In this document: one piece after another, positions 16,010 to 59,250 of the stretch
Position numbering within the stretch: the first letter of the stretch is position 1
How the letters are laid out: each line of letters opens with the position of its first letter
Source of the DNA: Escherichia coli
Lineage (GTDB): Bacteria > Pseudomonadota > Gammaproteobacteria > Enterobacterales > Enterobacteriaceae
Assembly (NCBI RefSeq): GCF_003790525.1
Contig: NZ_CP033635.1
Length of the DNA stretch: 64,000 bases
Strand: one strand, 5' to 3'
Program-made: the position numbers and the translations under genes
The notes under the pieces: model-generated
What the model saw: the letters and a program-made list of their open reading frames with translations, nothing else
Told to the model about the DNA's origin: nothing
Database searches by the model: none

Positions 16010-16121
16010 AACTGAAGTTGCCCTGAAAATGAAATTTTTTTGCACAACCGCAGAACTTTTCCGCAGGGCATCAGTCTTAATTAGTGCCACTGCTTTTCTT
16101 TGATGTCCCCATTTTGTGGAG

Positions 16122-16164
16122 CCCATCAACCCCGCCATTTCGGTTCAAGGTTGGTGGGTTTTTT
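16122..16164 (+). terminator. Hairpin plus T-run about 110 nt downstream of ybjL
   Basis: cccatcaacc...ggttggtggg stem followed by tttttt. Confidence 0.5.
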
Positions 16165-16183
16165 GTTGCCTGAAATTTATCTA

Positions 16184-47382: not shown

Positions 47383-47481
47383 GCCTGATGCGGCGTTAAC
47401 GCCTTATCCGGCCTACAAAGTCCTGCAGATTCAATATATTGCAGGTACTGCGTAGGCCTGATAAGCATAGCGCATCAGGCA
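47383..47481. repeat. Pair of inverted REP elements (BIME-like)
   Basis: gcctgatgcggcgttaacgccttatccggcctaca and the inverted copy gtaggcctgataagcatagcgcatcaggc. Confidence 0.75.
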
Positions 47482-57077: not shown

Positions 57078-57839
<762 letters not shown>

Positions 57840-58056
57840 TAACGCTACGCCTGTAAGGCGCACTGGCAGTTCCCTCTCCCCTCTGGGGAGGATCTATTGA
57901 TATCAACTGATTTCAACAGAGCTAACCCCTCCCCCTTTAACCCCCTTTGAAATAAGATATCATCAGAAATTCCTTTTCTCTGGGGGTCAATCATATTCCA
58001 TGAACATCAAGATGATTTTGGGGGCTATTCTGGGGGCTACATTTCAGGGGTAACTC

Positions 58057-59250
58057 ATGCCACTTACTGTTCGACAAATTGAGTCGGCTAAACCTGCTGA
58101 CAAGGATTACAAACTTTCTGACGGTCAGGGCCTTTATCTTCTTGTCAAAAAATCCGGTGCCCGTTACTGGAATCTGAAGTACCGGTTTGCCGGTAAGGAA
58201 AAGAAACTGGTGATTGGTGTCTATCCTGACATATCACTGGCTCAGGCTCGTCAGAAGCGGGATGAAGCACGTAAACTTCTGGCTGAAGGTAAAGATCCGT
58301 CGTATGAAAAACAGGCGCGAAAACTTGCCATCAGGGAAAGTATGGCCTGCACATTTCGCACCATTGCAGAGGAGCTGCTTACTCATATGGCACGTCGATG
58401 GACAACAGGTTACCAGGCAGACCAGCGTGCAAGACTTGAAAATCATGTTTTCCCTGCTCTTGGAAACCGTCCTGTGACCGGGATCCGCCCCATGGAAATA
58501 CTGAACGTCCTGAGGACTATAGAAGAACAGGGAAAACTTGAAGCACTGCGTAAAACACGCCAGCTCTGTGCGCAGGTTTTTGATTATGCCATAGCAACAG
58601 GGCGTGCAACCGTTAATCCGGCATCGACACTCAGCGGGGTACTGCTTCCTCCTGAAAAACAACAGCGCAGGACGCTTTCTGAAGAACAGATAGGAGCTTT
58701 CATGTATCAGATAACGGCTTCCGGAAATCTGATGTCGCTGGCAACGCGGATGCTGGTTCTGACCGCTGTTCGCACCGGAGAACTGCGACTGGCAACCTGG
58801 GACGAAATTAATTTCACGGAGGCCCTGTGGGTTATTCCGAAAGAAAGAATGAAAATGCGACGACCGCACGTTGTGCCGCTTTCACGGCAGGTACTGGCGT
58901 TACTGGAGGAGATAAAAACACGCACTGAATCGCGTAATTCCGCCTTTATTATTCCTGGTGCATTCAGAAAAGATCTCCCGCGAAACCGCAAGTGTATCAA
59001 TGAATTCCTTGAGCAGTCAGGCTGGCATGCCCTGACAACAGCCCACGGATTTCGTCATACCTTCAGCACCATTCTCCATGACCATGATTTCAGCTCAGCC
59101 TGGATTGAACTCCAGCTTGCTCATGTTGATAAAAACGTCATGCGTGGCACTTATAACCATGCGCAATATCTGGATGGACGTCGTGAAATGATGCAGTGGT
59201 ACGCTGATTACATTGATTCACTTATGGAGAAAAACGTAAAAACGAAATAA
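58057..59250 (+). CDS. Tyrosine recombinase, P4 / CP4-57-type integrase
   Basis: 397 aa; N-terminus (AKPADKDYKLSDGQGLYLLVK...YWNLKYRF) typical of P4-family integrases; C-terminal catalytic region HGFRHTF...LAH...Y. Confidence 0.9.
   Translation: MPLTVRQIESAKPADKDYKLSDGQGLYLLVKKSGARYWNLKYRFAGKEKKLVIGVYPDISLAQARQKRDEARKLLAEGKDPSYEKQARKLAIRESMACTFRTIAEELLTHMARRWTTGYQADQRARLENHVFPALGNRPVTGIRPMEILNVLRTIEEQGKLEALRKTRQLCAQVFDYAIATGRATVNPASTLSGVLLPPEKQQRRTLSEEQIGAFMYQITASGNLMSLATRMLVLTAVRTGELRLATWDEINFTEALWVIPKERMKMRRPHVVPLSRQVLALLEEIKTRTESRNSAFIIPGAFRKDLPRNRKCINEFLEQSGWHALTTAHGFRHTFSTILHDHDFSSAWIELQLAHVDKNVMRGTYNHAQYLDGRREMMQWYADYIDSLMEKNVKTK

Follow-up and report, generated by a model that had tools for sequence, protein, structure and literature searches.

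The elements with which the locus described here is best compared are satellite phage P4 and the KplE1/HK620 module, whose integrases follow the heterobivalent scheme of arm and core binding summarised in PMC2951348. Autorepression has been shown for P4 Int, for IntS and for the IntI protein of PAI I536 (PMC2951348, PMC7286903), and IHF sites have been reported in the int promoter regions of P4 and PAI I536 (PMC7286903). The autoregulation of P4 Int (Piazzolla et al. 2006, as cited in PMC2951348 and PMC7286903) is reported in PMC2951348 to depend on its direct binding to DNA close to the point where int transcription starts. In the GenBank record of P4 (NC_001609) units of 12 nt with the sequence TGGGGGCA(T/C) are annotated as 'attP arm sequence repeat'.

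Two further bodies of work bear on the insertion site. The papGII islands of uropathogenic E. coli occupy the same loci, glnP-glnH and ulaE-ulaD, and carry site-associated integrases (Biggel et al. 2020, PMC7686366); the text of that paper describes gln and ula at gene level only and makes no mention of att core or arm sites. The island described here differs from them in that the part of it that was examined has no pap operon. The BoxC/PIT/TMECO elements are intrastrand-triplex repeats of E. coli, at which Holder et al. 2015 reported greater genetic variability but no integrases or transposases nearby (PMC4666352).

The DNA analysed here is a stretch of 64 kb, referred to below as the window. 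An earlier note on it had described G- and C-rich tracts upstream of an integrase gene, and on re-reading the sequence these were present at 57901-58056, where the note had placed them. From its sequence, this region is very probably the int-proximal (P') arm of attL of an island of about 40 kb inserted in the BoxC hairpin between glnH and glnP, with a tandem pair of repeats that would be arm-type Int sites. The G-tract feature is most likely canonical P4-type arm-repeat architecture, the exception being the target, which is BoxC rather than a tRNA gene.

Layout of the left junction

The features that define the junction are as follows (coordinates are those of the window; coordinates preceded by an L number refer to comparison sequences).

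57093-57839, plus strand: glnH, the host gene to the left of the insertion (ORF list; annotation in a genome with an identical junction and in K-12)
57876-57890, no strand assigned: attL core CTCCCC-TCT-GGGGAG, an inverted repeat around a 3-nt centre (end of host homology; copy at the far junction)
58057-59250, plus strand: P4-type tyrosine integrase of 397 aa with an N-terminal arm-DNA-binding domain (Pfam, BLASTP)

The genome in which glnH is annotated at this place is that of strain 23CRST013, and its junction segment is 100% identical to the window over 57700-58300. In the genome comparison 5421 genomes were matched; 18 of these cover at least 80% of the query and carry the junction. Among 5426 complete E. 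coli genomes, nearly all align only as far as 57890, where the host homology stops, and this indicated that the tract is island-borne; as ordinary glnH downstream sequence of island-free genomes, the origin that the earlier note had set against its own reading, it was not found. In K-12 glnP follows directly after glnH (the empty site), while in 23CRST013 about 40 kb lie between glnH and glnPQ. The island of 23CRST013 contains the integrase gene, sugar and ketone-body utilisation genes, a gene for a PapB-family regulator, an AlpA-family gene and a CP4-type YeeU/CbtA module. Given this layout, the window ends ~6 kb into an integrative island whose left junction it contains.

The integrase contains the Pfam domains Arm-DNA-bind_3 (2.2e-28), Phage_int_M (9e-29) and Phage_integrase (5e-20). 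Its identity to P4 Int is 36% across the whole length of about 400 aa (BLASTP, E 4e-79), and that to IntS (HK620/KplE1 Int) is 41%. The AlpA/Vis-family gene present in the island is a candidate for a directionality factor.

Directly after int there is a gene for a TPR-repeat protein (59617-60672), followed on the minus strand by a 126-aa ORF of an ISAs1-family transposase (60774-61154), which suggests some decay or rearrangement near the left end of the island. At the other end, on the glnP side and outside the window, the glnHPQ operon is split by the island: glnPQ are now about 40 kb from the glnH promoter and lie directly downstream of frameshifted DUF4942 genes, in the same direction (L003 28119-30652).

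Core and target site

One reading offered earlier for 57901-58056 was that of an attachment-site core. The core, CTCCCCTCTGGGGAG, was instead found just 5' of this region, at 57876-57890, so that the region itself would be the P' arm of attL. Both junctions carry a 14-bp direct repeat, TCCCCTCTGGGGAG, the far copy being the glnP-proximal one on the minus strand (L003 29598-29585), and the heart of this repeat is the inverted repeat CCCC-N3-GGGG. At the left junction ...ccctcTCCCCTCTGGGGAG gives way to gatctatt, and at the right junction ...caccatTCCCCTCTGGGGAG gives way to aggattagggtgagggg. A tRNA or tmRNA gene was considered as the target of the island and rejected: none is found in the 64-kb window, and it is the BoxC hairpin between glnH and glnP that serves as attB.

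The empty site of K-12 (L002 1665-1705) has the sequence CTCCCCTATGGGGAGAGGATTAGGGTGAGGGG, also read as CTCCCCTATGGGGAG or as CCCTCTCCCC-TAT-GGGGAGAGGATTAGGGTGAGGGG. In the form CCCTCTCCCCTATGGGGAGAGGATTAGGGTGAGGGG it fits the three-block BoxC motif CCCTC(T/G)CCCC-N3-GGGGAGAGGG-TTA-GGGTGAGGGG with one mismatch (GGA for GGG). Related elements were located at a minimum of three BoxC copies, namely glnH-glnP, gcvP-ygfF (L096 494-530) and tusA (L098 883-925), and the ygfF and tusA sites match BoxC type A when compared with Table 1 of PMC4666352; all three attBs fit the consensus CCCTC(T/G)CCCC-N3-GGGGAGAGG(G/A)TTAGGGTGAGGGG (PMC4666352). A fourth site is a look-alike, CTCCCC-GGC-GGGGAG, inside the ulaE coding sequence (L095 685-701), where the insertion has taken the place of the 5' end of the gene. 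Judged from these insertions, the attB recognised by integrases of this family lies at the top of the BoxC/PIT/TMECO repeat hairpin (CCCC-N3-GGGGAG). In this the elements differ from what was reported in PMC4666352, where no integrases were found near the repeats, whereas here a P4-type integrase family uses the hairpin top as attB.

The central triplet of the core varies. The right arms at ygfF and tusA (L010 with L098) are identical at 259/260 positions, and the sole difference is the central triplet, TTT at ygfF and TCT at tusA, which follows the local BoxC copy. Within ulaE the triplets are GCC in attL and GGC in attR of PKF4 (L004 2486-2500 with L009 592-606), GGC in attL and AGC in attR of EC22 (L097 124-138 with L013), and GGC in the attB of K-12. 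The mismatch between attL and attR within single islands, together with the difference between ygfF and tusA, suggests that the triplet lies in or beside the strand-exchange (overlap) region and that heterology there is tolerated.

We regard it as an even question whether this P4-type integrase clade has exchanged tRNA genes for a new target, the top of the BoxC/TMECO hairpin, such that one element type could enter many chromosomal copies of this dispersed repeat. If this were true, it would explain part of the unexplained genomic variability at BoxC sites and would make BoxC a multi-copy landing pad for islands inside operons. The link between a P4-type integrase clade and BoxC repeats as attB is a more novel lead than the G-tracts themselves, and it defines at sequence level the gln and ula sites at which islands insert in uropathogenic E. 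coli. With the insertions the glnHPQ and ula operons are split, which may alter glutamine and ascorbate uptake in carriers.

A decayed attL-like remnant was also observed (L007 2460-2570 and L008 2460-2570), with a degenerate core, CCCTTCGGAGAGGAGCTATT, and 85% identity to window positions 57908-57975. It carries neither a G5 pair nor an integrase gene, and many E. coli genomes have it beside a 3-hydroxybenzoate 6-monooxygenase/maiA cluster.

Proposed arm repeats at both ends of the island

The repeat unit of the arm is TGGGGGCTA.

58019-58039, plus strand: two arm-type repeats, TGGGGGCTA at 58019-58027 and TGGGGGCTA at 58031-58039 (repeat search, conservation, P4 annotation)

The pair has the form TGGGGGCTA-N3-TGGGGGCTA with a period of 12 bp and occupies the positions 18-38 nt before the int ATG. 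Its octamer GGGGGCTA occurs only twice in the 64-kb window, at 58020 and 58032, 12 bp apart. In about 90 kb that include the whole 23CRST013 island and its flanks there are four copies, two per island end and all in the same orientation. A copy of the tract at the other island boundary, which the earlier note had proposed to look for, was thus found in the form of a second tandem pair of GGGGGCTA: the right-end pair, cgaTGGGGGCTAcatTGGGGGCTAtac, is located at L003 29679-29659, 61-81 bp before the core, in the same orientation and with the same 12-bp period.

Related left arms were found in 181 genomes, and 90 genomes have a related right arm. Four left arms and six right arms were aligned, and a seventh right arm, that at tusA (L098), was read separately from the alignment and carries the pair. 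The arms compared belong to elements at glnH-glnP, inside ulaE, at gcvP-ygfF and next to tusA, the six aligned right arms representing the first three of these sites. The left-arm pair is invariant in 4/4 aligned left arms, with overall identity down to about 80%. Among the right arms the G5 cores are invariant in 6/6, one arm (L012) having GGGGGCCA in the first unit, while the neighbouring DNA diverges and the spacer between pair and core is in one case almost unalignable. No copy of this exact arm was found across species among species representatives, the closest integrases outside E. coli being at most 55% identical, and a literature search for the motif GGGGGCTA together with integrase returned nothing relevant.

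In the mechanism that we propose, the N-terminal domain of Int would bind the TGGGGGCTA units on both arms, and the half-sites of the core, CCCC/GGGG, would be bound by its catalytic C-terminal domain. Once the island is excised as a circle, the core CTCCCC-N3-GGGGAG would have an arm pair on either side, and arm-bound Int monomers would bridge to the core and, together with bending proteins such as IHF, form the intasome for integration and excision. The junction has the composition of a complete and apparently intact P4-type site, comprising the core, two arm pairs, an intact-looking integrase and an AlpA-family gene; given this, the island is probably still excisable and the integrase probably self-limited. 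With the arm motif and the core as queries, islands of this kind could be searched for and additional landing sites predicted.

Comparison with P4 and with more distant integrases

The P4 arm motif, TGGGGGCAT, is nearly the same as the island TGGGGGCTA, and both have a G5C core. The int-side tandem pair of P4, atcatTGGGGGCATaatTGGGGGCAT, occupies the positions 16-39 nt ahead of the annotated ATG of int, or 28-51 nt ahead of the ATG that aligns with the integrase studied here. The two P4 pairs are at 3965-3942 and 4174-4151; the 20-bp core follows 112 bp after the first, and the second pair lies 53 bp beyond the core. Motif, 12-bp period, number of pairs and distances thus all correspond between P4 and the island: from core to pair there are 128 bp in the int-proximal arm of the island against 112 bp in P4, and 61 bp against 53 bp in the other arm. 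The two integrases are homologous from end to end and have the same set of domains, and each element has an AlpA/Vis-family gene.

There are also differences. The attB of P4-type elements lies in the 3' end of a tRNA gene, whereas here it is the palindromic CCCC-N3-GGGGAG in BoxC, or the ulaE look-alike. P4 is a satellite phage of 11.6 kb, whereas the present element is a CP4-type metabolic and fimbrial-regulator island of about 40 kb. Finally, P4 has an inverted arm copy over the int start codon and the island lacks it: downstream of the pair the best match to an inverted copy was 3/8 in the window and from 2/8 to 4/8 in three E. coli relatives. It was also seen that P4 int probably starts four codons further downstream than annotated (L094 3914-3926), given that the alignment with the present integrase begins at P4 M5 and that the inverted repeat GCCCCCA lies between the two ATGs.

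In a wider set, the last 80 nt before int were compared for 79 relatives from other species (L014-L093; Enterobacterales and beyond) with 34-55% integrase identity. A perfect 8-mer tandem with 11-13 bp spacing was present in 27/79 relatives as against 1/79 shuffled controls. The tandem motif is clade-specific (GGGGGCAT, GGGGGTAT, TGTATAG, ACGGTAT, GTGTATGC), and in 23 of the 27 relatives the inverted copy at the start codon changes along with it. Such clade-wise motifs with matching inverted copies are as expected for the sites of a co-evolving protein, and they could serve to predict arm specificity.

Expression of int and candidate accessory sites

The elements that may be concerned with transcription and translation of int, and with accessory proteins, are the following.

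57901-57913, plus strand: candidate IHF site TATCAACTGATTT, 12/13 against WATCAANNNNTTR, starting 11 bp from the core and mostly conserved in the left-arm alignment
57899-57910, 57909-57920 and 57956-57967, plus strand: direct copies GATATCAACTGA, GATTTCAACAGA and GATATCATCAGA, a repeat family conserved in the left-arm alignment
58011-58031, plus strand: candidate int -10 elements by prediction, GATGAT at 58011-58016 and TATTCT at 58026-58031
58046-58050, plus strand: AGGGG, the likely Shine-Dalgarno sequence of int, its last G 6 nt before the ATG

A stringent sigma-70 scan gave no promoter in 57700-58200. Of the two weak -10 candidates, the GATGAT at 58011 reads GATAAT or TATAAT in relatives, TATTAT also occurring among relatives at these positions, and TATTCT lies between the two G5 runs, in the same place as the predicted -10 of P4 (CATAAT); the predicted P4 promoter is TTGAAA-18-CATAAT, with the -10 between the two P4 repeats. 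The AGGGG at 58046-58050 is not an arm site and is not kept as GGGG in relatives. At this site int mRNA could also come from glnH read-through rather than from a promoter of its own.

The layout of an autoregulated int is present, in that the core ends at 57890, the arm pair occupies 58019-58039, the int ATG is at 58057 and int reads away from the junction. The P' pair lies over the likely -10/+1 region and ends 18 nt before the ATG, so that bound Int should hinder RNA polymerase and would in this way repress its own transcription. By analogy with the described systems, we lean slightly towards Int autorepression through the P' pair, which would then have the role of an int operator. The KplE1/HK620 module, with a 41% identical integrase, is similar in that int adjoins attL and reads away from the junction, with P' arm sites in the promoter/leader (PMC2951348), and this likeness predicts negative autoregulation here. 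It differs in the sequence of the arm sites, in its target, which is the argW tRNA gene, and in having TorI where the island has an AlpA-family protein; in KplE1, moreover, regulation was demonstrated experimentally (Panis et al. 2010, PMC2951348), whereas for the island we infer it. As for the suggestion in the earlier note that the tract is an integrase promoter or operator, the homologous layouts of P4 and IntS give good support to a putative operator, and the promoter is a predicted one.

If the repeats were instead the operator of another regulator (an AlpA/Vis-family protein or a host factor), with a purely transcriptional function outside the recombination site, their position immediately before int would also be explained. 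An AlpA-family protein is encoded in the island, and PMC7498355 describes directionality factors as commonly binding direct repeats about one helical turn apart. However, the other att arm, at a distance of about 40 kb, holds an identical pair and has no gene for it to control, the homologous repeats are labelled attP arm repeats in the P4 record, and the self-regulation of P4 Int is described, in the passage of PMC2951348 that treats it, as direct DNA binding near the int start. The family of three GATATCAACTGA copies is moreover a better candidate for an accessory protein than the G5 repeats. We therefore consider such an operator unlikely.

The three GATATCAACTGA-like copies are, from their sequence, candidate sites for an accessory protein, either IHF or an AlpA/Vis-family factor. 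Near them is an inverted ATCATC/GATGAT (58006-58018), both sides of which change together to ATTATC and GATAAT/TATAAT in relatives of 80% identity. These copies and the ATCATC-GATGAT may serve as sites of IHF or of an AlpA-family protein; alternatively, the int -10 box could be the 3' member of the latter.

Remaining tracts of the arm

The tracts of the region were read as follows.

57926-57938: C tract CCCC-T-CCCCC-TTT
57939-57949: AACCCCCTTTG
57980-57987: CTGGGGGT
58016-58038: TTTTGGGGGCTATTCTGGGGGCT
57921-57949, minus strand: C-run block GCTAACCCCTCCCCCTTTAACCCCCTTTG, with degenerate arm-like units on the minus strand and at most a weak accessory role
57979-57988, plus strand: TCTGGGGGTC, which holds the degenerate arm-like unit TGGGGGTCA (57981-57989, 7/9 to consensus)

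The first of these had been described as C5-T-C5; the tract is there, but its first run is C4. There are 43 runs of at least five G or C in the 64-kb window and five of them are within 57901-58056, which is the maximum for any 156-nt span of the window (Poisson P ~1e-7 per span, ~4e-5 when corrected for the number of spans).

Read on the minus strand, the C-run block at 57921-57949 is AGGGGGTTA, about 7/9 against the TGGGGGCTA consensus. In the left-arm alignment the 80%-identity variants have CTATCCTCTCCCTTCAACAGCTTTT or CTCTCCACCCCCTTTAACTCACTTT in its place, and only the C5 at 57931-57935 is roughly conserved within the block. The tract at 57979-57988 is likewise unconserved, relatives having CTGGATGTCA or CTGGACGTAA, and in the same alignment the 80% relatives have non-run sequence instead of the C4 at 57926, the C5 at 57941 and the G5 at 57982. 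As arm sites the C-runs and the extra G5 at 57982 match the consensus at 7/9 only, about 0.3 such matches being expected by chance in the arm (our own estimate and not the output of a tool), and they are unconserved; they would at most be weak accessory sites of this lineage.

The complementary C5 and G5 tracts had also been proposed to form a structured element. As RNA this could be a leader of int, as DNA a cruciform or hairpin, and it would regulate int or act as the recombination substrate. The minimum-free-energy fold does pair the C-runs (57925-57945) with the G5 runs, but its energy is no better than that of dinucleotide shuffles (z = 0.05 for RNA and -0.92 for DNA). In an alignment of four sequences 83.6% of cells pair, compared with 44-54% for slid partners; this control is, however, inflated, the structure having been derived from one of the aligned sequences, and the count of pairs in the four sequences was reached by 20/500 shuffles and was judged uninformative, as inverted sites of a protein would produce such a signal too. 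One coupled change is seen on both sides of the pairing, at ATCATC/GATGAT (to ATTATC/GATAAT), but coupled changes in an inverted repeat are equally expected for the sites of one protein, or for a -10 box. The 80% relatives lack the pairing partners C5 at 57941 and G5 at 57982 but keep the tandem G5 pair unchanged, the G5 pair at the far end is without a C-run partner, and the region has no match to an Rfam family, the only matches in the window being elsewhere. A structured element of this kind is accordingly very unlikely.

A G-quadruplex formed by the four plus-strand G-tracts (57982, 58020, 58032, 58047) in DNA or in the int 5' UTR and controlling int is more improbable still: although four runs of at least four G lie on one strand within 70 nt, the first and fourth are unconserved (GGATG or GGACG, and GGGAT or GGAGT, in relatives), one loop of 33 nt would be needed, the right-end copy has two G-tracts only and P4 and its relatives have the same two-tract tandem arrangement.

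The two Rfam matches of the window, to the RybB sRNA (104 bits, 16089-16167) and to the ES036/CssrF sRNA (41.6 bits, 47417-47459), are ordinary core-genome features with no relation to the junction.
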